Source: a virus
DNA: 40,447 nucleotides
Virus record (IMG/VR): IMGVR_UViG_3300050505_000427
Reading direction: 5' to 3' (one strand)
Below are positions 4,257 to 40,447 of the stretch, piece after piece; the first letter of the stretch is position 1; each line of letters starts with the position of its first letter. The notes under the pieces are model-generated. The model did no database searches and had not been told where the DNA came from. It was given only the letters and a program-made list of their open reading frames with translations. The position numbers were made by a program, and so were the translations under genes.

Positions 4257-4372
4257 AAAACTTTATTCGTGAAATGGCAGAGTTATATTTCTTTATCGCA
4301 ATTATGTTAATTGTTTTAGGTGGCGCCGTTTTGACCGGCTACAAACTCGCGCATCTTTTGGGGCTTCTATGA
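4253..4372 (+). CDS. Small single-pass membrane peptide (39 aa)
   Basis: My own translation: MKNFIREMAELYFFIAIMLIVLGGAVLTGYKLAHLLGLL. ATGA overlaps at both ends. Confidence 0.4.
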   Translation: MKNFIREMAELYFFIAIMLIVLGGAVLTGYKLAHLLGLL

Positions 4373-4797
4373 CCTCTCAACAAATCGATAGTCTAAAGCC
4401 GGGAGATACCTTTACTTTCCCGGAAAAAAAAGCCCTGATTCTAAATGGCTTTATATTAAGTCCGAATTTGCCCGGTATGTATTTTCCTAGCCATAGCAGC
4501 TTTATCTCAGATAATATCATTGGCGAAATGGTTATCGTCGAATTTATCGATCAAGGATCGATTTATTTTTGTAAGTATGGAAATATTAGTATAAAAGACT
4601 CGGTCTCAAAATCCTGGTTAAAACTTTTATTTAATTCTCTCCCTATTAAAGAAAGAAAAGAGCTTAAATACTGCACCTGCAGCGCCATGCTTCACAGCGC
4701 AGTCCGAAGCGGAACCGTCTCTCTAACCAACGCCGCACATGACACTTTCTGCGCCTACTTCCGCCACGGAGAGTCTAATCATACGAGGATAAAATGA
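4369..4797 (+). CDS. Hypothetical protein
   Basis: 142-aa ORF, coupled at both ends, lying in an AT-richer segment. Confidence 0.65.
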   Translation: MTSQQIDSLKPGDTFTFPEKKALILNGFILSPNLPGMYFPSHSSFISDNIIGEMVIVEFIDQGSIYFCKYGNISIKDSVSKSWLKLLFNSLPIKERKELKYCTCSAMLHSAVRSGTVSLTNAAHDTFCAYFRHGESNHTRIK

Positions 4798-6655: not shown

Positions 6656-6753
6656 TGGATTTATTTTTTGAATGTGTACTTACGGCACTTCTTGTAGGTA
6701 TATTGTCCGACAATTTTACCAGTTATTTAATCCGAACAAAGAGAAAGAAATAA
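6655..6753 (+). CDS. Possible 32-aa membrane peptide
   Basis: MDLFFECVLTALLVGILSDNFTSYLIRTKRKK. TAATG overlaps at both ends. Very short. Confidence 0.3.
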   Translation: MDLFFECVLTALLVGILSDNFTSYLIRTKRKK

Positions 6754-6995
6754 TGCCTGATATTACCTTGCGCTCCGGCGAAAATTGTCCCCTCAAAGAC
6801 AGTTGCTATCGCCACGTTGCATATCCTGAAGAGTGGCAATCATATTTTTCAAGTGCTCCCTACAACCACGAAACAAAAATCTGTAATTATTTTTGGGCGC
6901 TCTACGAAAAAACCTTGCAAGTTCCAGAGAAACCTGTTAAGGTTTCAGAGTGCAATAAAGCACACAAAAAGAAAAAAGGAAACAAAAGAAAATGA
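6753..6995 (+). CDS. Hypothetical protein with a Lys-rich tail
   Basis: An internal ATG was chosen over 6672. ATGA overlap with the next gene. Confidence 0.55.
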   Translation: MPDITLRSGENCPLKDSCYRHVAYPEEWQSYFSSAPYNHETKICNYFWALYEKTLQVPEKPVKVSECNKAHKKKKGNKRK

Positions 6996-13228: not shown

Positions 13229-14632
13229 ATGCCTCGTTATAGCAAAAAAGAAGCTCGCGAACTTAGCTGGTATCGAGGCGATCTGCGCTACAAACTCAAA
13301 CCCCATCAGCGCCTTATAGAAGAAGCCTTTCGACAATCTAAGAGTTTGCTTTTTTACGGAGATTGCTCTCGTCGCACAGGCAAGACTTTTTGGGCCGCCC
13401 TTAAGTGCGTAGAGTGGGCCCTCACGTGCCAGAACCCCCTGCCTCGCATCTTTTATGCCAGCAGTACCAAAACCGGCCTCAAAAAATTTGCCATCCCAGC
13501 TTTCGAGATGATTCTTGCCGATTGCCCCGAAGAACTCAAACCCCGCTGGAAAGTAAGTGAGCTTACCTATACCTTTCCCCATAACGGAGCTGAAATCCAG
13601 CTTATTGGCCTAGACGTTAATCCTGAGGCTGGCCGCGGTAACAACGCAGACCTCTATGTTTTTGAGGAAGCCGGTTTCATAGACAAGTTAGACTATCTAT
13701 ACAGTAGCGTTGTGACCCCGATGACAGCGACTCGTCCCGGCGCACGGGTTATTATGATTTCCACGCCACCGTCCACTCCCGCACATCCTCTTACGACAAC
13801 CTTCCTGCCAAAAGCTCTCGCAGAGGGTAGTTATATTCTCTTGACAATCGACGATAACACTATGCTCTCTCCAGCGCAAAAAAAGGTTCTTCTCGAAGAG
13901 TGTCTTACTGAAACCGAGCGCCTGCGCGAATACTATTGCCGCCATGTCACAGACGAGAGCCTCAGTCTTTGCCCAGAGTGGTCCCCCGAGCATGAAGTCG
14001 AGCTATCTCGCCCTGCCTACTTTAAGCAATTGCATCGTTACGTAGCCATGGACCTGGGAACGAAAGTAGACCTCACGGCCATTGGTTTCGGCTGGTACGA
14101 CCGCCTCACAAGAGTCTTCTATCTAGAGCAAGAAGACTCTATTAACGGGCCAGCTATGACCACCATCGCACTGCGGGATATGGTTAGAAAGCACGAGAAA
14201 GCCATTTGGGAAGGGCTAGAACCCTATCGCCGTGTCGCAGACAATGATAATCCCCTACTGTTGCAAGATTTAGGTAGCCTCCATGGGCTCCATTTTGTTC
14301 CCACGGGGAAAGATGAGCTAAAGGCCATGGTAGATCAGGTCCGAGTAATGGTAAAAGAAGGCCGCATTAAGGTAAATCCCAAAACCTGCCCCAAAACCAT
14401 AGGCTGCCTTCGCTATGGCGTTTGGGATAAGCATCGCAAACGCTTCGGGCGCTCCGCCGCCTATGGCCATTTCGATCACTTTGCTATGCTTATGTATCTA
14501 ATTAGAAACATTGACCTCTATGGCGGCGATCCCATCGCAGAGCCGGGAAGAACTAAGCAGGCAGCTAAGGACCGGAAAGAGCTTGAGATTGCTTTAGAAG
14601 ACATGAGTGGGATCTTTGAGGGAACAGAATAA
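13229..14632 (+). CDS. terL: Terminase large subunit
   Basis: Walker A-like GDCSRRTGKT and Walker B-like DLYVFEEAGF. 467 aa, directly upstream of the portal gene. Confidence 0.85.
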   Translation: MPRYSKKEARELSWYRGDLRYKLKPHQRLIEEAFRQSKSLLFYGDCSRRTGKTFWAALKCVEWALTCQNPLPRIFYASSTKTGLKKFAIPAFEMILADCPEELKPRWKVSELTYTFPHNGAEIQLIGLDVNPEAGRGNNADLYVFEEAGFIDKLDYLYSSVVTPMTATRPGARVIMISTPPSTPAHPLTTTFLPKALAEGSYILLTIDDNTMLSPAQKKVLLEECLTETERLREYYCRHVTDESLSLCPEWSPEHEVELSRPAYFKQLHRYVAMDLGTKVDLTAIGFGWYDRLTRVFYLEQEDSINGPAMTTIALRDMVRKHEKAIWEGLEPYRRVADNDNPLLLQDLGSLHGLHFVPTGKDELKAMVDQVRVMVKEGRIKVNPKTCPKTIGCLRYGVWDKHRKRFGRSAAYGHFDHFAMLMYLIRNIDLYGGDPIAEPGRTKQAAKDRKELEIALEDMSGIFEGTE

Positions 14633-14664: not shown

Positions 14665-16569
14665 TTGTCAGACAAGTATTTTGCATCATTGCCGGCCTAC
14701 GATCTTATTGACGAGTTAGTTCTGCGTAAGGAGCGATATTATCGCTACCTGCATGAAACGGGGCGCACAGAGCTGCTACGCAAGGTCTATAATTTCACTA
14801 ATAAAAGTGCCTTCAAACGCGGTAGCCTCTCCCGAAGCGGTAACCTGGGCCAGTATGTTAACATAAACGTAAACCACTTTAGAAATCTCATAGACCATCG
14901 CAAGAGCCTTCTCGTAAACCAACGCCCCGCCTATGACCCAAAGGCCATTAACACAGACTATAAGTCCATGGCGCAAACCACCATCGCTAGCGGCCTTTTA
15001 GACTACTATAGCCGCGTGGAAAAGTTAGAACGTTACCAGGCCGAGACTGCGGACCTGGCGATCCGCTATGGAGAAGGGTTTTTATACGGGGGATGGAACC
15101 CAAGCGGCGGCAAGGAATACGGTCGACATCCTGAGACTGGTGCTATTATCTATGAAGGAGACCTTGAGTTTGGATCCTATAGCACTTTCGATGTCATAAG
15201 AGATATTCACTACCGCAAAGCTAATTGTGACGAGTGGATCTTGCTTCGCAAGAGAGCTAATAAGTTTGAGATCGCCAGCCAGGCGGGTCTCTCCGAAGAG
15301 ACAAAAGAAGAAGTAATTCAAGAGAGCTATAGCGAGTTCCAGGGATTTTTAACCGATTTCGTTATTCGTCGCTTCTACGACAGCCCTACAAATGAACTCA
15401 TAAATAAATGGTGCTTTTATCATAAGCCTACCCCGGCCATGCCACAGGGAAGAATATTGGAGTTCACGGAAGGAGGCATTCTCTTATTTGACGGCCCGCT
15501 TCCTTACCGCAGCCTTCCCGTGATCCGCATGAGCGCGGGAGAGATGGAAGACTACATTTACGGCTATAGCAATACCTTTGATCTCGTCCCTCTCCAAGAA
15601 GCCATAGACAAGCTCTATAGCGTAGCGCTAACCAATAACGCTACCTTTGGCGTCCAAAATATTGCCATGCCCCGCGGAGCCGGTCTCACAGTAAGCCGTC
15701 TTGCCGGCGGTCTTAACCTTGTAGAGTTCGATCCCAAAGCCGGCAAGCCTGAGCCTCTTCAGTTAACTGCTACGCCAGTAGAACTCTATAACCTGATTGC
15801 AGTTTTAGAGCAAAAAATGGAAACCCTCTCGGGGATTAATAGTGCAGCCCGGGGCGAACCTGAGAGCAATCTCCGCAGCGCAAACAGCGTGGCGCTTGTC
15901 CAGACAATGGCCATTCAATTTGCTCAGGCCCTTCAGCTTAGCTACGTCCAGATGCTAGAGGACAGCGCTACCATGGTCATCCAAAATCTTCAAGACTATG
16001 CCAGCACCCCACGCGTCGCGCTCATTAGCGGAAAAAACAACAGCACCTATCTACAAACATTTAAAGGCGAAGACCTGGCAGACATCCATAGAGTAGTCGT
16101 TGACATGGGCAATCCAGTTATGAAGACCCTTGCCGGTCGCACCGACGCGGCCAATAGCCTCTTACAGTATAACCAAGTTAACGCCATGCAATATCTAGAG
16201 GTCTATAAAACTGGTAACTTGGAAGTGATGACGGAGGGTCCGCACGCACAAATGATGGGAATTCGTAAGGAAAATGAGATGCTTATGGCGGGTAAGAAAC
16301 CCCGCGCTCTCTCAATTGATAATCATGAATTGCACATTTTAGAGCATAGCACCGTTACTAGCGACCCGGAAATTCGGGAGAATGTTGCGATTCTTAGCCC
16401 AACATTGGAGCATATTGCCGAGCACCAGGCCCTTTTAGCGCAGCAACAACCGCCTATGCAAATGTCCCCGGAACAGAATAAACAAAAGCCTTCTCAAAGT
16501 GAAGGAAATCCCGCTATGTCTAGTGGTCCTGGAGCAATCCAACCGCCTAGCACAGCTCCCAAGGAGTAA
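14665..16569 (+). CDS. Portal protein
   Basis: 634 aa directly after terL. TTG start 6 nt after GGGAG. Q/P-rich C-terminal tail. Confidence 0.75.
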   Translation: MSDKYFASLPAYDLIDELVLRKERYYRYLHETGRTELLRKVYNFTNKSAFKRGSLSRSGNLGQYVNINVNHFRNLIDHRKSLLVNQRPAYDPKAINTDYKSMAQTTIASGLLDYYSRVEKLERYQAETADLAIRYGEGFLYGGWNPSGGKEYGRHPETGAIIYEGDLEFGSYSTFDVIRDIHYRKANCDEWILLRKRANKFEIASQAGLSEETKEEVIQESYSEFQGFLTDFVIRRFYDSPTNELINKWCFYHKPTPAMPQGRILEFTEGGILLFDGPLPYRSLPVIRMSAGEMEDYIYGYSNTFDLVPLQEAIDKLYSVALTNNATFGVQNIAMPRGAGLTVSRLAGGLNLVEFDPKAGKPEPLQLTATPVELYNLIAVLEQKMETLSGINSAARGEPESNLRSANSVALVQTMAIQFAQALQLSYVQMLEDSATMVIQNLQDYASTPRVALISGKNNSTYLQTFKGEDLADIHRVVVDMGNPVMKTLAGRTDAANSLLQYNQVNAMQYLEVYKTGNLEVMTEGPHAQMMGIRKENEMLMAGKKPRALSIDNHELHILEHSTVTSDPEIRENVAILSPTLEHIAEHQALLAQQQPPMQMSPEQNKQKPSQSEGNPAMSSGPGAIQPPSTAPKE

Positions 16570-16909: not shown

Positions 16910-19147
16910 GTGGCAACCAATGTTTTTAAGCAGATTAATCTAGACCTGCTAACCCCAACTACCGTTGGCGATGACCTCGGCAATCACACTGCTACGCAAG
17001 ACTTCCATCTAGACGGCAACGCGGTACGGACAGACGAAGCTGATGGCGCTAGCGCAATCGGGTTCCAATTCCAGACTGATAATGCCCTCGTGACAGACGG
17101 TAGCATCTTGCTACAGCTTAATAACATGAGTGATCTTTTTCTACAGGCTCGCCGTGGCAGCAGCGACGCGACCTCTTATTGGAGCGCCGATGACAACATA
17201 ATTGAGCTTGCTAGTAAAACCGGGACTATTCAGGGCTTTATTATCCCAACCGATGACCAGGGATTAATAATCGGGAACATCGCAGATCTCAATCTCACGT
17301 TTGCTAATGCAAGCGCGGATCAAAGTTACTATGGCGCCTTTACCTCTCAGCCTTTTGTATCCCAGCTAGATATTACCGCTAATAAAAGTGGCGTATCCGC
17401 GGGAATGCACGTCGATGTAAGTGGAACCTACGGACAGGTCAGTCTCACCGGAGATCAGCTCCAAGTAGGATTCAATATCGTAACACTGCAACCAACGGGC
17501 ACGACTGCTGATAAAGATCGCCTTCAGGATTTAGTGTCTGCCGTGCACTCTTCTGGTGGCGGTATCATTCAACTCTCGCAAGGTCTTTATGATTTAGACG
17601 ATGGGGTTGTTTTTAGCAGCATCAATAACGTAACGATTCGCGGCGCAGGACGCGCCACACGCCTTACCGCTACCGGCGGTGGAACCGGGGCTATGATCGA
17701 GTTTGCCGGTACTAGCGACCTTGTCGACCAGCCTTTAAATAATTTTAGTCGCGGCGCGACCAGCGTGTTTACCACGACAGCAGCTGCAGCGGGACAAGTA
17801 GGCACCGGCGATACTCTTTTTATTGTAGGTACCGATAGTGTGACAGGGTATAAAGAAGGCTTTACGGCTCGTGCATCGGCTAATGGTAATGGGGGGACGG
17901 GCGAGATCACTTTGGTAAACCCCGCTCCGATGGGCTTTACCGGAGGATTGCTAGATAATCCTAGTGCAAACAAATTTAATCGCTTAGAGAATTTACAGCT
18001 AGAGCCCGCAGGCACCTACGAACAAATTATCTTAGCGCGCTACAGCGATCATCTAGAGATTAGGGATCTCAATATTGAAGGCGAAGACGTGGCTCTCACA
18101 GGGACCGCTACTGATGGCATTAGCATGGTAGCTACTTTTGACACTCTCATAGAACGCGTTACCATTTCGAATCTAGACGGCTGTCGTGCGATAGCTTGCC
18201 GAGCGGCGATGACTCCTATTGTTCGTGGATGCAAGATCTATTCTAACAACAATAGCAGCACAGGCACGACCCCACAGGCCGCGATTCTCTTAGGTGTCAA
18301 TGCATATGGAGGTCTTGTAGAAGGAAACTTTATCCAAGGCGGCAAAGGAGATGGTGCAATCGTACTGGATGCCGGCGCGCACAATGTAACGCGCACTAGG
18401 GTTAGAGACAATGAAATTCTCTATCGCCCCACCGGACAGGGCATTCAAGTTAACGGCGGCTACCAAAATAGCGTTGAAGGCAACGACATTCGCAGTTGTA
18501 TCAGCGGGTCAAGCGGCTTCGGAATCTTGGCGAACATGAAAGATGGTTCTGCCTGCGATAACACAATTGTGGATTGCTCATGGGGAATTGTCAGCAATAT
18601 CTCGGGTGGAAATAACGTCCGCATCAATGATAATACATTAGAGCGTATTGACCAGCAAGGAATTTATTTGAACAATGGAGCGGATAGCGCAATCTGTGGA
18701 AACGATATCCGAACAGTAAACAACAGCGATGCTATCGGTATCGATAATAGCCAACGGGTAAGTTGTGTTGGTAACACCGTTAACTTTGCTCCACGCGGCA
18801 TTCGCGTTTATGATGATAGCGATGACGTGACCGTAAACGGTAACACGGTATTTGATACCACAAGCGGCATATGGGTTGATGGTAGCGCGACGGTCCCGAC
18901 TAACGTTGTAATCGTGGGTAACCTCGTGAGAACGGCTACCACCGGCATTCGCCTGAGCGCCTGTCAGGACTGCGCTGTGACTAGCAATCGCGTAGACAAC
19001 GCCACTACTGGCATTAAACTGGAAGACAATACCGGAGTTTGCGATAACAACCTTGTCGACCATAATAATATTCGTAGTAACATTACGCCTCTATCCGATA
19101 CCTCTACCGGCGTGAATAATCAGAAGCTTAGCAACCTAGTTGCCTAG
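16910..19147 (+). CDS. Tailspike/depolymerase with a right-handed parallel beta-helix (pectate-lyase fold)
   Basis: GGGIIQLSQGLYDLDDGVVFSSINNVTIRGAG is followed by many GN-I/V-containing repeats (NTIVDCSWGIVSN, GNDIRT, GNTVN, GNLVR, SNRVDN). GTG start after GGAG. Confidence 0.8.
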   Translation: MATNVFKQINLDLLTPTTVGDDLGNHTATQDFHLDGNAVRTDEADGASAIGFQFQTDNALVTDGSILLQLNNMSDLFLQARRGSSDATSYWSADDNIIELASKTGTIQGFIIPTDDQGLIIGNIADLNLTFANASADQSYYGAFTSQPFVSQLDITANKSGVSAGMHVDVSGTYGQVSLTGDQLQVGFNIVTLQPTGTTADKDRLQDLVSAVHSSGGGIIQLSQGLYDLDDGVVFSSINNVTIRGAGRATRLTATGGGTGAMIEFAGTSDLVDQPLNNFSRGATSVFTTTAAAAGQVGTGDTLFIVGTDSVTGYKEGFTARASANGNGGTGEITLVNPAPMGFTGGLLDNPSANKFNRLENLQLEPAGTYEQIILARYSDHLEIRDLNIEGEDVALTGTATDGISMVATFDTLIERVTISNLDGCRAIACRAAMTPIVRGCKIYSNNNSSTGTTPQAAILLGVNAYGGLVEGNFIQGGKGDGAIVLDAGAHNVTRTRVRDNEILYRPTGQGIQVNGGYQNSVEGNDIRSCISGSSGFGILANMKDGSACDNTIVDCSWGIVSNISGGNNVRINDNTLERIDQQGIYLNNGADSAICGNDIRTVNNSDAIGIDNSQRVSCVGNTVNFAPRGIRVYDDSDDVTVNGNTVFDTTSGIWVDGSATVPTNVVIVGNLVRTATTGIRLSACQDCAVTSNRVDNATTGIKLEDNTGVCDNNLVDHNNIRSNITPLSDTSTGVNNQKLSNLVA

Positions 19148-19188: not shown

Positions 19189-20493
19189 ATGTCTTCCAAT
19201 ATTCTAAAGAATCTTGATAGAATTGTTCAAATAGCCGGAGAGAATGGCGAGTTAATTGCCTCTGATTCGGGCGCCCTTAAAGTAAGCGTAGAAGGCGGTA
19301 CCGCTGGCCACGTTATCATAGATAACGCAGAGCTCGCCGTCGAGATCAGTGCAAGTGACGGCGATAATATTGCAATCGTCCGACCAGACGGCAGTAACCC
19401 ACTTTTACCTAATGCAGATGGATCCCTGAATGTAAATATAAGCGCAGCCAGTGTTACCGTTACCAATGCCGCAGGCGCGAGCGCCGTTAATGTGCAAGAC
19501 GGAGGCAACTCGTTAACCGTAGACGGTACCGTTGGTATAAGCGGAAGTGTTGCCGTAACAGGCCCCCTAACCGACGCGCAGCTTCGCGCAACTGCTGTGC
19601 CAATCAGTGCAGCGTCGCTGCCCCTTCCAAGTGGCGCAGCCACAGAATCAACTGTCTCGACCCTTCTTCTCGATAATACTTTTAAGGCGCGCATTAATGC
19701 GCTCGGGCAAAAGGGAATGGCGGCCTCAACACCTGTTGTCATTGCATCTGATCAAAGCGCTGTTCCAGCTTCCCAGTCCGGGACATGGAACATTAATAAT
19801 ATTAACGGAGCTATTAGTCTTCCAACTGGTGCCGCAACCCAAGCAACTCTCGCCACTCTCTTGCTTGACTCGACTTTTACTTCTATGTTTCCATCCTTTG
19901 GCCAGAAAGCAATGGAGGCTTCATTACCTATCGCCATTGCATCCGATCAAAGTTCGATCCCCGTCACGCAATCAGGTACTTGGAATTTGACGAATATAAG
20001 TGGGACAGTTTCGCTACCAACGGGGGCCGCCACGGCTGCTAACCAGGCCACAATGGTCACCTCTCTTAGTAATATCGATGCAGGCACGCCAGCAGCCCTT
20101 GGACAGACAACTATGAGCGCTTCGATGCCAGTAACAATCGCCTCTAATCAAACCTCACTTGCAACAACTGCTGCCTCCGCTAACCGCCAAGATACCTATA
20201 CCGGGACCGCAAATGGGACAACCATTAATGCCTCCACGGCTCCGCTTAAGGCTTTCTCCTTGCAAGTTAAGGGAACTGGTGCCGCAGCAACAAGTTGGGA
20301 TGTGCGCCTTGAGGGTAGTCTTGATAACGCCAACTTTACACAAGTCTTGCAGCACACGAATGTGGACGGAGATGGAGCCGTAAAGTTTAGTGGCGCCTCT
20401 TTATCTCCTGCGCTTTATTTTCGTAGTCGCTGCGCAGGGCTCACGCTTGGCAGCGCTACTAATATCGTCGTCACTATCCTTGGAGTCGAATAA
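19189..20493 (+). CDS. Fibre-like virion protein with three 65-aa tandem repeats
   Basis: 434 aa, rich in Ala/Ser/Thr/Gly. The repeat LP(S/T)GAAT...GQK.M..S.P..IASDQS..P..QSGTWN..NI.G..S occurs three times. Confidence 0.75.
   Translation: MSSNILKNLDRIVQIAGENGELIASDSGALKVSVEGGTAGHVIIDNAELAVEISASDGDNIAIVRPDGSNPLLPNADGSLNVNISAASVTVTNAAGASAVNVQDGGNSLTVDGTVGISGSVAVTGPLTDAQLRATAVPISAASLPLPSGAATESTVSTLLLDNTFKARINALGQKGMAASTPVVIASDQSAVPASQSGTWNINNINGAISLPTGAATQATLATLLLDSTFTSMFPSFGQKAMEASLPIAIASDQSSIPVTQSGTWNLTNISGTVSLPTGAATAANQATMVTSLSNIDAGTPAALGQTTMSASMPVTIASNQTSLATTAASANRQDTYTGTANGTTINASTAPLKAFSLQVKGTGAAATSWDVRLEGSLDNANFTQVLQHTNVDGDGAVKFSGASLSPALYFRSRCAGLTLGSATNIVVTILGVE
19624..20160 (+). repeat. 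Tandem 195-nt (65-aa) coding repeats: two full copies plus one partial copy
   Basis: Repeat starts fall at aa 146, 211 and 276 of the protein. Confidence 0.85.
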
Positions 20494-21068
20494 TGAGCAC
20501 ACAGGCCCAGCCAGTTTACTTAGTCAGTCCCAATGCAACAGAGCCAAAAACGAGGCTTGGGTTATATTTTTACCAAGCTGGCAATTTCACAGTCCAAGCG
20601 AGCGCCCACGGGGCAACTGCGGGTTTTTTCTGGCTCATTAATCCCGTTGGTTCTGCGGTACAGGTGAGAATAAAGCACATCGATTGTGTTAGCCAACTTA
20701 CTTCGGCCCTTGTAGCGACAAGTGCGCCAAGAATTACTGTTGAAAGAGTGACCTTTACAGGCACAGCTAGTGGGGCAAGCGTTACGCCGGCGAAACAGTT
20801 CTCAACAGATGCTGCTAATGTCAGCTCTCTACGGACTGCCTCAACGGGGCTATCCTTAAGTGCCGGCGCGGCCGCATTTGCTTTCCTCCCTATTGCCAGT
20901 GCAACAGCGGTTGGCTATAATCCCGCGACTTTTATTAGTATGGATAATGCCGCAACAGATGCTCTTGTCCTTACTGCCGGCGAAGGAATCGTCATGCGGC
21001 AACCAGATGCAGGCACTGCTAGCGATACGAGAAAGCTTACCTTTAATATTATAGTGGAAGAGCTGTAA
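20493..21068 (+). CDS. Hypothetical virion-module protein
   Basis: 191-aa ORF with a TAATG overlap with the fibre gene. Confidence 0.65.
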   Translation: MSTQAQPVYLVSPNATEPKTRLGLYFYQAGNFTVQASAHGATAGFFWLINPVGSAVQVRIKHIDCVSQLTSALVATSAPRITVERVTFTGTASGASVTPAKQFSTDAANVSSLRTASTGLSLSAGAAAFAFLPIASATAVGYNPATFISMDNAATDALVLTAGEGIVMRQPDAGTASDTRKLTFNIIVEEL

Positions 21069-21070
21069 AG

Positions 21071-21217
21071 ATGGCTAAGATTATCCTACTCAAGCCAAAT
21101 GCAAAGAAGATTCGCCGCTACGGCTGGAAAGATCGCCTGCGTCGCAACAGCAAGCCAATAGGCTTGCTTCGAAGACTTTGGCGGTTCCTCACCGGAAAAC
21201 GACTTAACTTGCGCTAG
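21071..21217 (+). CDS. Possible very basic 48-aa protein
   Basis: MAKIILLKPNAKKIRRYGWKDRLRRNSKPIGLLRRLWRFLTGKRLNLR, with 17 of 48 residues Lys or Arg. Confidence 0.35.
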   Translation: MAKIILLKPNAKKIRRYGWKDRLRRNSKPIGLLRRLWRFLTGKRLNLR

Positions 21218-21387
21218 TCCTTTTCATCTCGTACGCAAAAAAGTTCTTCCGCCTCGCTATGCTGCTTCTCTTTCCGTAACGCAATCAGTAGCAGTTCTTG
21301 TTGCGTCTTCATTAGAATCTCTTTTTCACGGTCAGTTAGTGCAGCTTTTGCCGGTGCGGTTTTGCGGAGTGTCTTGAGACTATCCAT
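21214..21387 (-). CDS. Cassette ORF j (57 aa), hypothetical
   Basis: MDSLKTLRKTAPAKAALTDREKEIL... GGAG upstream. It shares a palindromic CTAG stop with the convergent plus-strand ORF. Confidence 0.45.
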   Translation of the reverse strand: MDSLKTLRKTAPAKAALTDREKEILMKTQQELLLIALRKEKQHSEAEELFCVRDEKD

Positions 21388-21598
21388 CTAGTGCTCCGTA
21401 TAGTTCTTCAAAGACCAGATAGGTGCTAGTAAGATGCTTGAGCAAGAGACCTTTACTCTCACACTTCGCAAGGAAGTCTAGGATGAAAGCGTCAAAGTCC
21501 TCGGGATCTGTCGCTAGACACCATTCATCGAGTTCCGCTCCGCGTACCGCCACTTGGATCTGATTGCGAAGCAAGTCTTTAATGTTTTGTAGGGTCAT
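21380..21598 (-). CDS. Cassette ORF i (72 aa), hypothetical
   Basis: GGGAGGA Shine-Dalgarno sequence upstream of the ATG. Confidence 0.65.
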   Translation of the reverse strand: MTLQNIKDLLRNQIQVAVRGAELDEWCLATDPEDFDAFILDFLAKCESKGLLLKHLTSTYLVFEELYGALDG

Positions 21599-21812
21599 TT
21601 TTATCCTCCCGCTTGTTTACTAAATTAAAGGCTTCGATGAGAGTCGAAGCTGCAGTTTGCATTTGAGCCTCTGAAAATCCCGCATTCCATGCTGTCTCAA
21701 CCATCAGTTGAGAAGCAACCATCCCGCATTCTTTTATAGAAAGACCGTGAGACGCGAGAAGCTTATGGATCTCGTCTACGACAGTTAAGATCATTTCAGG
21801 ATTGCGTTTCAT
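21579..21812 (-). CDS. Cassette ORF h (77 aa), hypothetical helical protein
   Basis: ORF overlapping both neighbours. Confidence 0.6.
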   Translation of the reverse strand: MKRNPEMILTVVDEIHKLLASHGLSIKECGMVASQLMVETAWNAGFSEAQMQTAASTLIEAFNLVNKREDKNDPTKH

Positions 21813-22005
21813 TTTCTTTTACCCTGTCTAGGCAATCTAGATACATATCATCTAATACCATTCTTAGTTTTTCTGGCGTTTTGAATACACGCGCCATTAA
21901 TTCTATGAGCATAGCCGACAAAATTATTCCTTGATCGCCTTCAGTCAAAAAATACTTATCGAATACCTTTTCGATACCTTTCATTGCTAGTTCCACATTT
22001 TTCAT
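21796..22005 (-). CDS. Cassette ORF g (69 aa), hypothetical helical protein
   Basis: AGGAGG Shine-Dalgarno sequence upstream. Confidence 0.65.
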   Translation of the reverse strand: MKNVELAMKGIEKVFDKYFLTEGDQGIILSAMLIELMARVFKTPEKLRMVLDDMYLDCLDRVKENETQS

Positions 22006-22013
22006 TTTTCCTC

Positions 22014-22187
22014 CTAGTGTAGGTCTATATCTTCGTCTAGTCCTTTTTTATGCATCCACTCGTCTATAAACTCGGCGCGGTTATGGATTACCCGCGGGCG
22101 CAGCCAGCGCCTCTTAACTCGCTTATAGACATCTGCTGCCCCGAAGAGGGCAAAGATGACCATTAGAATGAAGCCAACGATTTCCAT
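22014..22187 (-). CDS. Cassette ORF f (57 aa), N-terminal single-pass membrane protein
   Basis: MEIVGFILMVIFALFGAADVYKRVKRRW... Starts directly after the upstream stop. Confidence 0.45.
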   Translation of the reverse strand: MEIVGFILMVIFALFGAADVYKRVKRRWLRPRVIHNRAEFIDEWMHKKGLDEDIDLH

Positions 22188-22406
22188 TTAAAAGGGCACC
22201 TTATTACCGTCTTCATATTCCGCCGCGCATTCGCACTCATAGCAAGTAATTGGATTGCGATCCGTGGGAACAAACTCAAGACCACACTCGCGACACTTCG
22301 CAACAGTTAATTGCTTTTGGAAGCCGTCGAGACGATTATTTAAAGCCTGCAGGCCGTCGATTAGGTCATCGAGAATACGTAGTAAAATCTTAGTGTTGGT
22401 ATCCAT
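22188..22406 (-). CDS. Cassette ORF e (72 aa), zinc-ribbon protein
   Basis: CRECG...CYECEC. AAGGA Shine-Dalgarno sequence upstream. Confidence 0.65.
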   Translation of the reverse strand: MDTNTKILLRILDDLIDGLQALNNRLDGFQKQLTVAKCRECGLEFVPTDRNPITCYECECAAEYEDGNKVPF

Positions 22407-22419
22407 CTTATTTTCCTTT

Positions 22420-22581
22420 CTATAAGTCTAGCAGGTTTGCTTGCCAGTTGTCTAGAATTTCTTGCGTTCTTCGTTCAATAGCAATGGTCTCGCTAATAAT
22501 GCCATATGTTTCAATGAATTCAGCTAGCTGCATATCCTGGATCTCCGTGCAGGCTTGCTCGAATGCGCGTTCCCAAGTCAT
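22420..22581 (-). CDS. Cassette ORF d (53 aa), hypothetical
   Basis: MTWERAFEQACTEIQDMQLAEF... GGGAG upstream. ATGA overlap with ORF c. Confidence 0.5.
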   Translation of the reverse strand: MTWERAFEQACTEIQDMQLAEFIETYGIISETIAIERRTQEILDNWQANLLDL

Positions 22582-22688
22582 AAATCACTCCCGCTGAAAA
22601 GGAAGATCAATACTAGGATAGTAAAGAAGACACCCAGAAATGGAACGAGGAGCTTGTAGATAGCAAATATGGCGAGCCAGGTAAGCAT
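22578..22688 (-). CDS. Cassette ORF c (36 aa), hydrophobic single-pass peptide
   Basis: MLTWLAIFAIYKLLVPFLGVFFTILVLIFLFSGSDL. AGGAG Shine-Dalgarno sequence upstream. TAATG overlap with ORF b. Confidence 0.45.
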   Translation of the reverse strand: MLTWLAIFAIYKLLVPFLGVFFTILVLIFLFSGSDL

Positions 22689-22798
22689 TATTTTGTCTCC
22701 TGCTTCACGTAGTAGAGAAACCATCCGATGACCGCGAGGACGGGAACAGTCGCGAGTTTGAATGCGAAGGCCACAAAAGAGATTGCGATGGTAATCAT
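22688..22798 (-). CDS. Cassette ORF b (36 aa), hydrophobic single-pass peptide
   Basis: MITIAISFVAFAFKLATVPVLAVIGWFLYYVKQETK. Starts 1 nt after the stop of ORF a. Confidence 0.4.
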   Translation of the reverse strand: MITIAISFVAFAFKLATVPVLAVIGWFLYYVKQETK

Positions 22799-23188
22799 TT
22801 ATTTGCCCTTCTTAATCTTTATAGCAAGCATAGCCGCGGCTTTAAACTTGCTATATTGCCGTATAGAGCGACTGTATTTTATTGCATTACAAATCATTCG
22901 ATCTTGCTCGACCAAATATCGCTTTAAACCGTTGATTGAAAGATCATTCACCAAACTCTTTGCGATTTGCTCAATTTCACTCATTCTAACTTCCCTTTTA
23001 ATGCCTCGTGGGCTTTGTTCTAATTGATTCATTAAAAATTGCATAATCTCTTGTGGATCTTGAGTATATTGCTCATCTGCGTCTTTGGTCAATTGATACC
23101 ACAAAAACAACTCGCCATCCTCGATTACAAGCTCTGCGGGGACTTCGCCATAGCCCGTTTCAAAGAGTCCTGTTGCTAAGAGCTTCAT
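22799..23188 (-). CDS. Cassette ORF a (129 aa), hypothetical; first gene of the cassette
   Basis: The ATG at 23188 is preceded by GGAAGGA. The track ORF extends to a GTG at 23317 that has no Shine-Dalgarno sequence. Confidence 0.6.
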   Translation of the reverse strand: MKLLATGLFETGYGEVPAELVIEDGELFLWYQLTKDADEQYTQDPQEIMQFLMNQLEQSPRGIKREVRMSEIEQIAKSLVNDLSINGLKRYLVEQDRMICNAIKYSRSIRQYSKFKAAAMLAIKIKKGK

Positions 23189-23319
23189 TGTCTCGGTCCT
23201 TCCAAGATAACTATTAAGAGTCTGATTAGTGTTTCCATGTCTGTTAGAGAATGCATAAGCTGTGCCGAAAGTGGCAGTTGATTTCATTGGCGTTTTTGTG
23301 ACCCCTCGGCGCCACACTG

Positions 23320-23415
23320 GTAACGATAGTTACATGCGCGCTAGCGCCGCAGGGATAACGCTTTGATCTAGTTAGGCTTTGCCTAATTGCAACTTTAGTT
23401 ACCCTGGGGTAACAT
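23320..23415. promoter_or_regulatory. Divergent promoter/operator candidate region
   Basis: The palindromic hexamer TTGCAA (23387-23392) can serve as a -35 box in both directions. On the plus strand a 17-nt spacer leads to TAACAT (23410-23415). Inverted repeats: GTAAC-gata-GTTAC (23320-23333), TTAGGC-ttt-GCCTAA (23372-23386) and GTTACCC-tg-GGGTAAC (23398-23413). Confidence 0.45.
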
Positions 23416-23498
23416 AAGTTCCGATGGGTATGGGACAATGGTATGGGTTGGAAAGAGAAACAGCAACTCTTATGCCAATCATTATCGGTTTTTCGCTT

Positions 23499-23535
23499 GC
23501 AAGAATCATGCCAATCAAATTGGCATACATCTTGC
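23499..23535. promoter_or_regulatory. Nested 37-bp palindrome (operator or RNA hairpin)
   Basis: Outer arms are GCAAGA (23499-23504) and TCTTGC (23530-23535). Inner arms are ATGCCAAT (23508-23515) and ATTGGCAT (23519-23526). A further ATGCCAATCA copy lies at 23472-23481. Confidence 0.45.
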
Positions 23536-23677
23536 ATCATGCAATTTCTATGCCACTCCTCCTGGCAGGCCCGTTAGCGAGTGGCGATGTGGGGTTGGGG
23601 GTTCACACACTCGTATACACAAAGACTACTTTTTCATCTACTTAACACCGCATTTGCACTACTTTTTTTTAACAAAT

Positions 23678-23702
23678 ACACCCAGTGGGGCAGACTGGGT
23701 GT
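23678..23702 (+). terminator. Terminator-like hairpin upstream of the scaffold/capsid operon
   Basis: ACACCCAGT (23678-23686) pairs with ACTGGGTGT (23694-23702) around a 7-nt loop. It is followed by TTCTATT. Confidence 0.45.
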
Positions 23703-23815
23703 TTCTATTAAAAAAGGCATTATTATCGTAAAGCCGATAACAGAACTCTCCAAACGATCTCTCCCAGCTACCGCAGCAAGGTGCCGCGGCGCGGGGCGAA
23801 AAGGAGTACCAAACC

Positions 23816-24706
23816 ATGTCCACCCCCAGTCCAACACCCGCTGTCCAAGAACAACCCCCCATAGAAACCCCATCTGAGGCCCCTGCTAGCCCCAAGGTAA
23901 ATGCTGAGGGTAGCATCCCAGTCGTAGAAATGCCTAAAGAAGCTCCCAGGCGCCTTAAAGTTAAGGTTAACGGGAATGAGCAAGAAATTGAAGAGGCCGA
24001 ACTGGTAAGAGACTACCAGCTTAAACAGGCCAGCTATGCCAAGATGCAAGAAGCCGCGGAAATGAAAACTAAGCTCATGGAGATTATCCAGATCCTTAAA
24101 ACCGATCCAAAACGTGCACTTAGCCATGAAATGGTCGGCGTCGACGTCCGCAAGTTTGCCGAGCAAATCCTTGCTGAACAGCTTGAAGAAGACCTCATGG
24201 ACGATAAGGATAAAGCCCTCAGAGCGAAAGAACGCGAGCTCGAAGAGTTCCGCCAGCGGGAGGCAAAGCAAAAAGAAGCCGAGCGCCTGCAAGCCGAGGA
24301 AGCGGAAATGCAGCGGCACTTCGAAACCTATAAGAACCTGGTTAACAAGGCGGTTGCCTTGACGGGAACTCCCGGGAGTAAAACTCTTTATAATCGCATG
24401 ATTACCTATCTTCAAGCCGCAGAGCACAGTGATATCCTCCCATCTCCGGAAGAGCTTGCGCAGGCGGTTATGGAAGAAGATCGTGGGTATTTCTCGGCAG
24501 TTTCCAAGGACTTGCCTATGGAAAAGCTGGCAGCCCTATTGGGAGAAGATACTTTAAAGGCTCTCAGGAAATGGGATAGCGAACGGATTGGTAAACAGGT
24601 TGCTAAATCCCAAGAGACTGGTGAAAAGCGCCCAGCTAAGAAGACCTCTAAGAAGGGTCATAGCTGGGATGAGATGATGGAAACTCTTCGCGATAAGTAT
24701 AAATAA
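23816..24706 (+). CDS. Scaffolding protein
   Basis: 296 aa with a Pro-rich N-terminus and a highly charged coiled-coil core (EELEEFRQREAKQKEAERLQAEEAEMQ). Immediately upstream of the capsid gene. AAGGAG Shine-Dalgarno sequence. Confidence 0.7.
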   Translation: MSTPSPTPAVQEQPPIETPSEAPASPKVNAEGSIPVVEMPKEAPRRLKVKVNGNEQEIEEAELVRDYQLKQASYAKMQEAAEMKTKLMEIIQILKTDPKRALSHEMVGVDVRKFAEQILAEQLEEDLMDDKDKALRAKERELEEFRQREAKQKEAERLQAEEAEMQRHFETYKNLVNKAVALTGTPGSKTLYNRMITYLQAAEHSDILPSPEELAQAVMEEDRGYFSAVSKDLPMEKLAALLGEDTLKALRKWDSERIGKQVAKSQETGEKRPAKKTSKKGHSWDEMMETLRDKYK

Positions 24707-24872: not shown

Positions 24873-26141
24873 ATGGCAGCAGAAGTAACTTTAGAACAGT
24901 TACAGGGTATGGCCAAAGAAGTCTATGCAGATAGCTTCGAGGACCTTATTCCGGAACATGTTTATCTATTAAAAATGATCCCTTTCAAAGAATCCGAAAA
25001 ACTCGGCTTCGCCTACAACGAACCCGTTGTGGTTAGCGAGTCTCAAGGCGTGACCTATGGTGGCCCAGAAGACGACGCAATGACCCTTAATCCCCCGATT
25101 GCTACCTCGACCCGCAATGCGCGCGTTCGCGGCAGTCAAATCGTGGCTCGCGATCAAATCGGCTACAAAGCAGCCGCTTCACTCGTAGCGAAAGGCCCTA
25201 AAGCTTTCGTTAACGGCACGGAGCATGTTATTCGCCAGCTTCTCAAGACTTCAACTCGTCGTTTGGAGCTTATGCTCCTGTACGGCGGCTCGGGTCTCGG
25301 TGTGGCAGCGTCTAGTGCTAACCAAGCGGCTACTAAAACCCGTATTACCATTCAAACTAAGCAATGGGGTCCGGGCATTTGGGTGGGTATGAAAAATGCT
25401 CAGCTCGATGCTATCGATAACACAGACGCGGTGATTAACACCACGGGTCCATTGACTGTGGACAAAGTCGACATGGCCAATCGTAAGCTTGACCTAACCG
25501 GCGCAGCCGCGGACATCGCAGCTCTGGATACAGAGATTGCGGCGAATCCCAATACCGTGAGATTGTTCTTCCTGGGCGCTTTTGAAAAAGAAGCTCTTGG
25601 TTTGGATAAAATCATCACGACCAGCGGAACGCTGTTTGAGATCGACAATACAGTCTATGACCTGTTTCAAGGTAACCAATTCGACGCGGGCGGCGCAGCT
25701 CTTAGCTTTACCAAGTTAAGCAAGGCTGCGGGTCAGCTCGTGCCGTTTGGTGTGGAAGGTGACTTGCTCGTTATGGTTAGCCCAGCGACCTGGGAAAACC
25801 TAAATAATGACGAGGCCGGCAGTCGGCGTTATGATAGCTCTTACAAGAGCCGTCTGGCGGAAAAAGGCGTAGAGGCAATTGATTACCATTATCAAATGGG
25901 CGTCATGAGCGTTATGTCACATCCGTGCGTTAAAGAAGGCGAAGCCTTCATGGTCAAAAAGAGTGCTCTTAAGCGCGTTGGCGCTCAAGAAATCTCGATG
26001 AAAAATCCTGGCAGCGGCGATAGAATTTTCTTCGACCGTCCAGAGAATAGCTCATTTGAGATCCGCACCTATTGCGATCAGGCTATCTTCAGCGATCATC
26101 CATCATGGTTGCTCAAGATCATTAATATCGTTAATAGCTAA
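24873..26141 (+). CDS. Major capsid protein (HK97-fold expected)
   Basis: 422 aa following the scaffold gene. AGGAG Shine-Dalgarno sequence. A strong hairpin lies downstream. Confidence 0.85.
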   Translation: MAAEVTLEQLQGMAKEVYADSFEDLIPEHVYLLKMIPFKESEKLGFAYNEPVVVSESQGVTYGGPEDDAMTLNPPIATSTRNARVRGSQIVARDQIGYKAAASLVAKGPKAFVNGTEHVIRQLLKTSTRRLELMLLYGGSGLGVAASSANQAATKTRITIQTKQWGPGIWVGMKNAQLDAIDNTDAVINTTGPLTVDKVDMANRKLDLTGAAADIAALDTEIAANPNTVRLFFLGAFEKEALGLDKIITTSGTLFEIDNTVYDLFQGNQFDAGGAALSFTKLSKAAGQLVPFGVEGDLLVMVSPATWENLNNDEAGSRRYDSSYKSRLAEKGVEAIDYHYQMGVMSVMSHPCVKEGEAFMVKKSALKRVGAQEISMKNPGSGDRIFFDRPENSSFEIRTYCDQAIFSDHPSWLLKIINIVNS

Positions 26142-35279: not shown

Positions 35280-35501
35280 ATGGCGGGCGAGAATGGGTGG
35301 AGCGAGTATAAGATCCACGTTATGAGTGAAATTCAAGAGTTAAAAGAGAGCCAAAAGGATATGCATGCCCAGCTTAGCGAAATTTCAACACAATTGACAG
35401 GGTTTAAGACGAGCCAGAAGTGGGAAGCGCGGATACTGAGTGCTTTTTGGGGTTTGATTGTGCTGGGAATTAATTTTATTGTTGGTAGGCACCATCAGTG
35501 A
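35280..35501 (+). CDS. Tail-anchored membrane protein (XhlA-like architecture; holin-associated candidate)
   Basis: 73 aa with an N-terminal coiled-coil-like region and a C-terminal TM segment ILSAFWGLIVLGINFIV. Confidence 0.5.
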   Translation: MAGENGWSEYKIHVMSEIQELKESQKDMHAQLSEISTQLTGFKTSQKWEARILSAFWGLIVLGINFIVGRHHQ

Positions 35502-35843: not shown

Positions 35844-36356
35844 ATGGATAATGCGGGTAAATATATGTCACGATTGCGTATATTGCTTTGTAAGTTTTGT
35901 GGAATGATGACAAGTACGGACAGGTGTCCAGCTTGTCTGCGTAGTAGACAGTGGGTCTCTCTGCAAGAGCTTCTTGGGGGGCATGATAAAGAGCCAGAGC
36001 ATGCAGTGGAATTGACTGCCGAGGTCCTAACTAATCTTGCTATTCTTGGCGAACGCGTTAACAAACTGCTTAGCTGGGCGATGCCCTTGCTTCCGGAGTT
36101 TGAGTGCGTGGTGACGAGCGGGTGGAGGCCGGAGAGTTATAACAAGGCTATTGGAGGGGCGCCGGGTTCGAAGCATATTCGCGGGATGGCGGTTGATATT
36201 CTTGACGAGAAAGGCCTTTTGAATGGCCTGCTGAAACAGAATGTTAAGAAGCTTGAGGAACTGGATCTAGCGATTGAGGCGAGGGAAGCGACGCCGAGCT
36301 GGTGTCACATTCAAGTGGGCGCGCCGAAGAGTGGTCATCGAGTTTTCTTTCCGTAG
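35844..36356 (+). CDS. Peptidase M15-type zinc peptidoglycan hydrolase (endolysin) with an N-terminal zinc ribbon
   Basis: SGWRPESYNKAIGGAPGSKHIRGMAVDI...WCHIQV provides an H/D/H ligand pattern. CKFC...CPAC lies at the N-terminus. Confidence 0.8.
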   Translation: MDNAGKYMSRLRILLCKFCGMMTSTDRCPACLRSRQWVSLQELLGGHDKEPEHAVELTAEVLTNLAILGERVNKLLSWAMPLLPEFECVVTSGWRPESYNKAIGGAPGSKHIRGMAVDILDEKGLLNGLLKQNVKKLEELDLAIEAREATPSWCHIQVGAPKSGHRVFFP

Positions 36357-39421: not shown

Positions 39422-40447
39422 TTAGCTTTCGCTAATGATTTCATATTTACTAGTGTCTATTCCCATGGTTGCGAGGCGCACTAGCTCTGCGTTATCGCAG
39501 TCTGTTGGCACAAGGCCGAACACGTTTTGAAACTCTTCGGGCGTACGTGGTACACCTAAAAATGTTTCCTGTTCTTGGAGAGTATCATGCCAGGTGACTT
39601 TTAGCAAGCGAATATTTTCATTGTCGTTAGGTAGACGCACTTCCCAAAGCTCGATTGGCTTTGTGCTGCCGCGCGTCGAAGGTGCGCTTGATATAAATTT
39701 GCCATTTAGCGCGCGCACTAGATCATCAAAGCCGCCGCGCATGTTACGAAGTACGGCCATGCGAACATCATTATTTGGCTCTGCTAGCAATTCTTTAGCA
39801 TTTATGGGTTTTTCAATATATTTAGCAGGTACGAAAGTACCATTGAGTGCGTAAAGGGCACTGCCATCGCGCCATTTTTTAAAGGGACCCGTGGTACAGT
39901 GGGGTCTATTTTGAGCGTTCATTTTGATATACTCTGGACGGTCAGATACTATAACAAAGTCTCGATGCATAAAACGAGCACCCCCATATATTTCTGCATT
40001 TTTATAATGACGCCATTTCTCATAAATTGGAAGGTTTAGACCCACTATATCATCGAAAAAAGAATAAAAAGAGGTCGACTGAGACCATTCATTTCCAAGA
40101 TGTAAGAAATCCCATACAGAAGAAAACTTTTGTAATACATTTTTAAAATTTTTACCTTCGAAAGATTCAAAAATATGTTTAAGATCCTCATTATTTAAAA
40201 AACCAGTATAAAAGGTATTTAAGTCTGTCGCGGCCCTTGTCGCGTCCCCTGTCGCGTCCCCTGTCGCGGCCCCTGTCGCGGCCCATGTCGCGTCCCTTGT
40301 CGCGGCCTCTGTCGCGGCCTCTGTCGCGGCCCATGTCGCGGCCCTTGTCGCGTCCCCTGTCGCGGCCCTTGTCGCGGCCTCTGTCGCGGATCTCATGGCG
40401 ACGTTTATTTTATTTTTTTGTTGCTCTTCTATAAGACAAGTGGCAAG
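39422..40447 (-). CDS. 3' part of the junction-spanning gene: tetrapeptide-repeat segment plus a C-terminal domain resembling DUF6745
   Basis: The ORF has no stop between 40396 and the window end. It contains the repeat ATEAATRAATGDATRAATWAAT... The C-terminal motif FVIVSDRP...RPHCTTGPFKKWRDGSALYALNGTFVP matches my memory of the DUF6745 family. Confidence 0.85.
   Translation of the reverse strand, partial: LATCLIEEQQKNKINVAMRSATEAATRAATGDATRAATWAATEAATEAATRDATWAATGAATGDATGDATRAATDLNTFYTGFLNNEDLKHIFESFEGKNFKNVLQKFSSVWDFLHLGNEWSQSTSFYSFFDDIVGLNLPIYEKWRHYKNAEIYGGARFMHRDFVIVSDRPEYIKMNAQNRPHCTTGPFKKWRDGSALYALNGTFVPAKYIEKPINAKELLAEPNNDVRMAVLRNMRGGFDDLVRALNGKFISSAPSTRGSTKPIELWEVRLPNDNENIRLLKVTWHDTLQEQETFLGVPRTPEEFQNVFGLVPTDCDNAELVRLATMGIDTSKYEIISES
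40226..40393. repeat. 12-bp tandem array, 13 units plus 1 degenerate unit, consensus TGTCGCG[G/T]CC[C/T][T/C/A]
   Basis: Units counted directly from the sequence. Units 9-14 are also present at 2..73 because of the terminal duplication. Confidence 0.95.
40321..40447. repeat. Terminal direct repeat, exact copy of 1..127
   Basis: Identical to 1-127. It covers the last 6 units of the 12-bp array plus 54 bp of unique sequence. Confidence 0.97.

Follow-up and report, generated by a model that had tools for sequence, protein, structure and literature searches.

The DNA analysed here, IMG/VR virus record IMGVR_UViG_3300050505_000427 (40,447 nucleotides (nt), in the following called the window), is a complete and circularly assembled phage-like genome with bases 1–127 repeated at 40321–40447, and the phage has a size of about 40.3 kb. 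We describe a block on its minus strand, positions 21214–23188, which is situated between the tailspike and fibre genes and the scaffold and capsid genes. The block consists of ten consecutive open reading frames (ORFs) of 36–129 amino acids (aa), each starting with ATG, which are in the order of transcription:

O10: 22799–23188, minus strand, 129 aa, transcribed first
O9: 22688–22798, minus strand, 36 aa
O8: 22578–22688, minus strand, 36 aa
O7: 22420–22581, minus strand, 53 aa
O6: 22188–22406, minus strand, 72 aa
O5: 22014–22187, minus strand, 57 aa
O4: 21796–22005, minus strand, 69 aa
O3: 21579–21812, minus strand, 77 aa
O2: 21380–21598, minus strand, 72 aa
O1: 21214–21387, minus strand, 57 aa, transcribed last

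A first-pass annotation made from the sequence had proposed ten tightly packed ORFs with Shine–Dalgarno (SD) sequences, and all ten were recovered on the minus strand exactly where it had placed them. The junctions from O10 to O1 measure 0, −1, −4, +13, 0, +8, −17, −20 and −8 nt, abutting or overlapping junctions between 0 and −20 nt being common, and the start of O8 overlaps the stop of O9 as TAATG. Purine-rich SD-like tracts (GGAAGGA, AGGAGA, GGGAG, AGGAGG, GGGAGGA and others) precede nine of the ten starts, and the tract of O3 is weak. ORFs on this single strand cover 98.9% of the block, whereas 2,000 first-order Markov simulations of matched composition gave 23% on average and never more than 63%. 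The G+C content (GC) of the block is 0.43, as compared with a mean of 0.489 for the genes of the genome (standard deviation 0.035). The ten ORFs probably form a translationally coupled operon which is read leftward.

The region is present with 100% identity in two independent assemblies, L008 and L014, which together with the window constitute lineage A. The only sister lineage found, lineage B, is represented by L012 (JGI 3300010401) and L013 (ENA ERZ27256645) and has a nucleotide identity of ∼82% over positions 20766–24264. L012 and L013 differ from each other at 28 of 2405 positions and thus there is also microdiversity within lineage B. The ORFs O1, O2, O3, O5, O6, O7, O8 and O9 are all open in lineage B and have the same length there, save for a one-codon indel in O6. 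The ratio of nonsynonymous to synonymous substitution rates (dN/dS) between both lineages is 0.07 for O1, 0.03 for O2, 0.18 for O3, 0.017 for O5, 0.02 for O6, 0.04 for O7 and 0.16 for O9; within the block O5 is conserved best (98% aa identity), and O3 is the fastest evolving of the common genes (74% aa identity). For O8 the synonymous changes are saturated, and here the proportions of nonsynonymous and synonymous differences (pN 0.20 vs pS 0.85) give a pN/pS of about 0.23. For the fibre, p48 and scaffold genes on the flanks, dN/dS is 0.07–0.10. In addition, the differences between both lineages are skewed to third codon positions in each common ORF tested (P from 0.016 to 4e-9; O6 was omitted from this test owing to its one-codon indel), and the pooled differences amount to 46, 28 and 139 at the three codon positions (P = 1.9e-21). 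These results show that the eight common ORFs are under purifying selection which is as strong as on the neighbouring structural genes. The first-pass annotation had named missing conservation and frame-breaking changes in relatives as the outcome that would speak against the block, and on the contrary eight of the ten frames are kept with dN/dS values well below 1.

The shortest ORFs deserve separate consideration, as ORFs of this size and without database relatives might have arisen by chance or by mis-annotation, and the gene caller, which reported nine of the ten ORFs in the lineage-A assemblies, did not call O8. A longer form of O8 with a 48-aa start was rejected, since lineage B caps O8 at 36 aa. 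Third codon positions are significantly enriched for differences in O8 (P = 0.004) as well as in O9 (P = 0.016), and therefore both 36-aa peptides are real genes, in agreement with the calling of both as genes in L013. Together with the ORF coverage far beyond the simulated maximum, the retention of frames and lengths at ∼82% nucleotide identity and the low dN/dS values, these results leave next to no probability for the explanation by chance ORFs, which is effectively refuted for the eight common ORFs.

One further observation concerns O5 (22014–22187), whose dS of 0.44 and nucleotide identity of 92.5% stand out against a dS of 0.9–2.0 in the neighbouring genes. The low dS could reflect either a recent exchange of this piece between the lineages or an extra constraint at the nucleotide level.

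Exactly two genes of the block are missing from lineage B, namely O4 and O10. The segment of O4 that is specific to lineage A comprises 193 nt (21813–22005), stretches from one start codon, that of O4, to the next, that of O3, and has the 9-nt direct repeat AAAATGAAA at its flanks; in lineage B the AGGAGG SD sequence of O4 leads directly into O3. Likewise, the A-specific segment of O10 (22799–23188) is the whole 390-nt ORF with its stop codon, an exact ATG-to-ATG difference relative to L012 with AATGA at the flanks, and in lineage B the conserved leader and the GGAAGGA SD sequence lead directly into O9. The overlaps of the BLAST segments, 9 and 5 nt, match the lengths of these microhomologies. 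Thus, the gene content of the operon changes by one whole gene at a time from start codon to start codon. As the indels run exactly between start codons, one ribosome-binding site then serves the next gene.

Both genes also differ in their base composition. With a GC of 0.35 O4 is the most AT-rich gene of the genome, O10 has a GC of 0.39, and both are compositionally foreign. Since they are AT-rich, an insertion in lineage A is favoured over a deletion in lineage B, and judged by base composition O4 and O10 are probably recent insertions in lineage A. Their status as genes is supported by their SD sequences and their coupling and in the case of O10 also by remote homologues (see below). The earlier suggestion that relatives might reveal an indel hotspot has been borne out, as the only two known lineages differ by two gene-precise indels of deviant composition. 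The insertion of O4 and O10 might have been aided by two proteins which the phage itself encodes, the Sak4-like annealase and the exonuclease. According to two published accounts, single-strand annealing proteins such as the Sak4-like annealase promote the recombination of short, diverged sequences and generate phage mosaicism (PMC5499656, PMC8093625).

Upstream of O10 we found a strongly conserved non-coding leader, and a dedicated control region had been predicted at this place. The leader (23189–23320, minus strand, ∼130 nt before O10) is 86% identical between both lineages, with long perfect blocks, and contains the SD sequence GGAAGGA. The mismatches between the lineages are distributed 6/8/5 over the codon positions without any periodicity and thus the leader is non-coding; on the same grounds a 172-aa form of O10 with a GTG start was rejected. 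Footprinting of both lineages revealed in addition a conserved block AACTAAAGTTGCAA at 23387–23400. The sequence TGGAAA-16-AATAGT (23237–23210, minus strand), some 15–20 nt ahead of the SD sequence, is the only promoter-like site on the minus strand which is common to both lineages. A promoter motif shared with the other operon starts of the genome was not found. A structured RNA leader was considered and rejected, as the leader shows no significant RNA structure (z = 0.63), and it has no match in Rfam. At the other end of the operon the TAG stop codon of O1 and the TAG stop codon of the convergent gene p48 overlap in the palindrome CTAG (21214–21217), and the same layout is present in lineage B (L012).

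Two other sites of this region should be mentioned. Inside O10, at 23063–23092 on the minus strand and facing the downstream genes of the cassette, lies TTGACC-18-TATACT (10 of 12 positions), which of all sites in the region is the most sigma-70-like; matches of this kind occur here at chance level, and if real the site would be an internal promoter brought in by the inserted gene. Furthermore, a hairpin with a 9-bp stem resembling a bidirectional terminator is present ahead of the scaffold gene (23678–23702) in lineage A only. The sequence found there in lineage B is unrelated and carries an insertion of 22 nt.

The products of the operon are small and diverse. None of the ten ORFs has a significant match in Pfam, PHROGs, NCBIfam or PADLOC, which agrees with the failure of the first-pass annotation to name any of them; the best PADLOC match, of O3 to PDC-M64C, has an E-value of 0.037 and is not significant. 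Relatives of known anti-defence proteins were not detected in PHROGs, Pfam and the sequences of the PDB, a dedicated anti-defence library not being among the searched collections. Several features that had been read from the sequence were confirmed, namely the hydrophobic nature of O8 and O9, the N-terminal transmembrane (TM) segment of O5 and the CxxC...CxxC motif of O6. In O5 the TM segment (maximum Kyte–Doolittle hydropathy over 19 residues, KD19, 2.31 at residue 3) is followed by KRVKRRWLRPR, and the C-terminal tail is nearly invariant between both lineages. O8 (36 aa) has a grand average of hydropathy (GRAVY) of 2.0 and ends with SGSDL without a charged C-terminal tail. O9 (36 aa) has a GRAVY of 1.26, a conserved aromatic cluster IGWFLYY and the tail KQE(T/A)K. 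O2, O4, O6 and O7 are acidic with isoelectric points (pI) of 4.1–4.8, for example, O7 with a pI of 4.1 and a net charge of −8.5 and O2 with a pI of 4.3 and a net charge of −7.4. O1 is charged and helical, O3 is helical and the acidic O4 is helical as well.

The motif of O6 is zinc-ribbon-like (C38xxC41-x13-C55xxC58) and all cysteines are invariant in the sister lineage, although its matches to Pfam zinc-ribbon families all remain below the family cut-offs. In the AlphaFold2 (AF2) model of O6, with a predicted local distance difference test (pLDDT) score of 66, the residues 3–40 form a long helix at pLDDT 79–92 and the CxxC ribbon part is below 50. The model of O10 has an overall pLDDT of 58. 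Its N-terminal half is strand-rich with low confidence, and the C-terminal domain (residues 65–128, pLDDT 70–87) has predicted helices at 69–82, 85–104 and 110–128. No Foldseek match at E ≤ 0.001 was obtained for the models of O10 and O6 in the PDB or in BFVD.

Homologues of O10, O6 and O2 were sought by a word-indexed search of an index of 5.8 billion proteins, which returned only the proteins themselves or their relatives in lineage B, and the only relative of O2 is that of lineage B. When 1.84 billion representatives were searched exhaustively with phmmer, six relatives of the C-terminal domain of O10, residues 65–128, were detected (62–103 aa, E-values from 6.5e-8 to 2.6e-4), which are known from metagenomes only. 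This family comprises a three-helix domain of about 60 aa with the motif DLsxxGLxRYxxEQxRMIxNExKYGRSxxxY. In the alignment L, D, L, Y, R, N, R and A are invariant, and within KYGRS O10 has an S where the others have a G. The family proteins are named only 'hypothetical protein'. The domain family has no relative in Pfam or PHROGs and a profile search of the PDB sequences was empty. There was also no match in a tblastn search of 50,697 phage genomes with O10, P0004 and P0005 nor in scans of IMG/VR with these three and with the degenerate motif. Three matches of the degenerate motif in GTDB genomes were rejected as chance, as there are stop codons in the surrounding frame.

In one point the first-pass annotation did not stand. 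It had considered the helical proteins O3 and O4 as possible paralogues, but the BLASTP similarity between them has an E-value of 0.05 over 14 residues in different register, O4 is missing from lineage B, and the GC is 35% for O4 as compared with 42% for O3. Paralogy of O8 and O9 was rejected likewise, as were paralogues of the cassette ORFs elsewhere in the genome or in distant relatives.

The first-pass annotation had also offered a role in lysis timing as an alternative, with O8 and O9 and possibly O5 acting as a holin/antiholin or pinholin-like pair placed away from the endolysin. In fact O8 and O9 are adjacent, translationally coupled, hydrophobic peptides of the size of a single TM segment which are conserved in both lineages, and O5 combines a TM segment with a charged cytoplasmic tail. 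When the products are compared with the holin pattern of a TM segment and a charged C-terminal tail, O5 fits, O9 fits weakly (VKQETK) and O8, ending with SGSDL, does not. To our knowledge, 36 aa is shorter than the characterised holins. A holin family match was not obtained in Pfam or PHROGs (E ≤ 1). Moreover, the endolysin gene (35844–36356) is on the other strand and 13 kb from the cassette, and the lysis module has its own candidates, as a 73-aa protein with a single TM segment (35280–35501) and a lipobox protein are encoded directly upstream of the endolysin. We therefore regard this alternative as highly improbable.

A further explanation would be a regulatory module, in which O6 and/or O1 bind to DNA or to RNA polymerase and the block together with its leader serves as a switch for the divergent capsid operon. 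Next to this divergent late operon there is strong conservation of the leader and of the TTGCAA block, and O6 is highly conserved (dN/dS 0.02) and carries the zinc-ribbon motif. On the other hand, profile searches of the Pfam and NCBIfam type did not detect any helix-turn-helix (HTH) or ribbon-helix-helix (RHH) family in the ten products, nor any known regulator family. Moreover, neither as many as ten genes nor membrane peptides nor genes which vary between close lineages would be required for a switch, and such a role appears quite improbable to us.

The position of the block within the genome can be seen from the neighbouring features:

13229–14632: terminase
14665–16569: P22-type portal
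16910–19147: beta-helix tailspike
19189–21068: two fibre-like proteins
21071–21217, plus strand: p48, a basic protein of 48 aa, convergent with O1
23189–23815: ORF-free stretch of 627 nt
23816–24706: scaffold
24873–26141: capsid, followed by further virion genes and the lysis module

The genome furthermore encodes its own replication proteins, namely an exonuclease, the Sak4-like annealase, a DNA polymerase, a primase and a polymerase exonuclease subunit. An integrase or a repressor was not found in it, and there is no DNA similarity to catalogued phages. The phage is uncultured and apparently virulent and podovirus-like. The only distant relatives found have capsid proteins that are ∼35% identical, and L001–L003 among them have contiguous terminase, portal, scaffold and capsid genes and no cassette. 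As these relatives keep the head genes contiguous, the 7.2 kb from portal to scaffold including the cassette are specific to the lineage, and the block does split the virion module as had been proposed.

Given this position, the products might also be morphogenesis helpers, that is, chaperones or assembly factors for the tailspike and fibre or for the head proteins. The block is placed between the fibre genes and the scaffold and capsid genes, and lineage B keeps eight of its genes along with the structural genes on either side. Nevertheless, the block is encoded on the strand opposite to the fibre operon, against which it runs with overlapping stop codons, three of its products are membrane micro-proteins, and O4 and O10 come and go between close lineages. 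In addition, the block is missing from the distant relatives which have the same portal, scaffold and capsid, and there is no match to a structural or chaperone family in PHROGs. We consider a role in morphogenesis to be unlikely.

Some other observations on the genome may be added here. The distant relative L004 (1–11272) has its terminase–portal–scaffold unit in the opposite orientation to the capsid gene with ∼5 kb of small ORFs in between, and hence the portal/scaffold/capsid junction has been rearranged in more than one lineage. The protein p48 is extremely basic (MAKIILLKPNAKKIRRYGWKDRLRRNSKP...), and with a dN/dS of 0.10 between both lineages it is a real gene. Over the entire genome, the cumulative GC skew has its minimum at 23001–24000, the interval of the ORF-free region 23189–23815, and the skew of the plus-strand genes ranges from −0.05 to −0.27 at the far left and from +0.13 to +0.32 at the far right. 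This minimum beside the cassette may indicate an origin or a terminus of replication, or else a mosaic boundary. Within the replication module two plus-strand genes without family match, 4369–4797 (GC 0.40) and 6672–6995 (GC 0.38), deviate from the mean of 0.49 and may be additional acquired accessory genes. The capsid protein encoded in the assemblies L009 and L010 is identical to that of the window, at a nucleotide identity of only 91%. The 191-aa fibre protein as query retrieved only unrelated phages with a common fibre domain, and a scan of IMG/VR with the scaffold protein gave no match.

We suggest, with reasonable confidence, that the block is a flexible accessory (moron-like) operon of ten small non-virion genes which probably act on the host. 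The operon would be read leftward from its own control region (23189–23400), between the tailspike/fibre genes and the scaffold–capsid genes. The convergent operons face each other without a terminator, which suggests their separation in time, and accordingly timed expression of the block would differ from that of the surrounding virion genes. The product set consists of O5, O8 and O9, which are predicted to be inserted into the membrane, the acidic and presumably soluble O2, O4, O6 and O7, of which O6 would combine a coiled coil with a zinc ribbon, and three others. Rather than building the virion these proteins might act on the host cell, be it in takeover, in the blocking of defence or surface machines or in the exclusion of other phages. 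That no virion, lysis or defence family was matched by any ORF in PHROGs, Pfam, PADLOC and NCBIfam is in line with this suggestion. The proposal of a non-virion accessory block in the first-pass annotation is thus upheld insofar as the genes are a real, selected and gene-variable set; the classical label 'moron' fits only loosely, as this is a ten-gene operon for which no terminator was found, in a phage in which no lysogeny genes were found.

Several points weigh against our suggestion. With 8 of 12 matching positions the only conserved promoter-like site is weak, and the promoter-like matches in the region are at chance level with four found and 5.2 expected. At the 3′ end of the operon, on the side of position 21214 with the overlapping convergent stop codons, there is no terminator-like site. 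As only two lineages are available and no outgroup bears the cassette, insertion and deletion are separable by base composition alone. Neither homology nor fold (PDB profile search, Foldseek searches with O10 and O6) ties any product to a host-directed function. Finally, small assembly factors could also be expected at a place within the structural region.

A more far-reaching idea, which we regard as speculative and rather doubtful, is that podoviruses with head modules of the P22 type have, directly upstream of their scaffold gene, a dedicated and recurrent docking site for a backward operon which works as an integrase-free array of gene cassettes. ORFs would be captured singly and from start to start via microhomologies at the translationally coupled junctions, such as AAAATGAAA and AATGA, and the cargo would be drawn from a pool of counter-defence and exclusion micro-proteins. 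Each newcomer ORF would inherit the ribosome-binding site and the promoter of the array. The capture could be driven by the phage annealase, and the region of the skew minimum, as a possible origin, may favour it.

Taken together, ten micro-genes of an uncultured phage which cannot be annotated, two of them with only 36 codons, have been analysed, and the eight with sister copies are selected genes. The comparison of both lineages displays at single-base resolution how an operon gains or loses a single gene while the neighbours remain undisturbed. The block adds about ten new families of small proteins, among them those of three membrane micro-proteins and a rare domain family, which are candidates for screens for host takeover, exclusion or counter-defence.

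Blocks with comparable features are known from other phages. The hyperplastic or early-gene regions of the T4 and T7 type contain dense, small and overlapping ORFans with a high turnover, many of which encode acidic proteins for host takeover. These regions are however usually situated early in the genome and co-directional with it, whereas the block described here is embedded in inverted orientation in the virion module. The acr–aca operons share with the block a short operon with its own upstream control region and very small, acidic ORFan proteins of fast turnover. In contrast to these operons, no gene for an HTH or RHH autorepressor (Aca) was detected in the block and three of its products are membrane peptides.

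For the membrane peptides a functional analogy may be drawn to PfsE of the filamentous Pseudomonas phage Pf4, a hydrophobic peptide of 30 residues which through its conserved YxWGW cluster acts on the inner-membrane machine PilC, blocks type IV pili and thereby excludes other phages (PMC8764522). O9 resembles PfsE by its 36 aa, its hydrophobicity and its conserved aromatic cluster IGWFLYY. Nevertheless, there is no sequence kinship between PfsE and O9, and the type of phage as well as the host are different, such that the analogy would be one of function only.

A further comparison is with the phage morons, which were reportedly described by Juhala et al. in 2000. A moron is an autonomous unit of promoter, gene and terminator which is mostly expressed from the prophage (PMC3594210, PMC10914365). 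Like the block, morons are extra genes of seemingly non-essential nature between conserved neighbours and are missing from relatives. In the case of the block the flanks of O4 and of O10 are joined in lineage B and the whole block is missing in L001–L003. A deviant composition is found as well, for O4 (0.35) and O10 (0.39), which are AT-rich and present in one lineage only, and for the block as a whole (0.43 vs 0.489). The proposed host-directed role would also be shared with morons, compare the superinfection exclusion by HK97 gp15. Unlike a moron, the block is a coupled ten-gene operon without a terminator, a weak promoter-like site is present upstream of the whole operon only, O4 and O10 are slotted in from ATG to ATG without signals of their own, and lysogeny genes were not found in this phage. 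The block is not a new kind of system, and dense, fast-changing blocks of small ORFans are standard in phage genomes.

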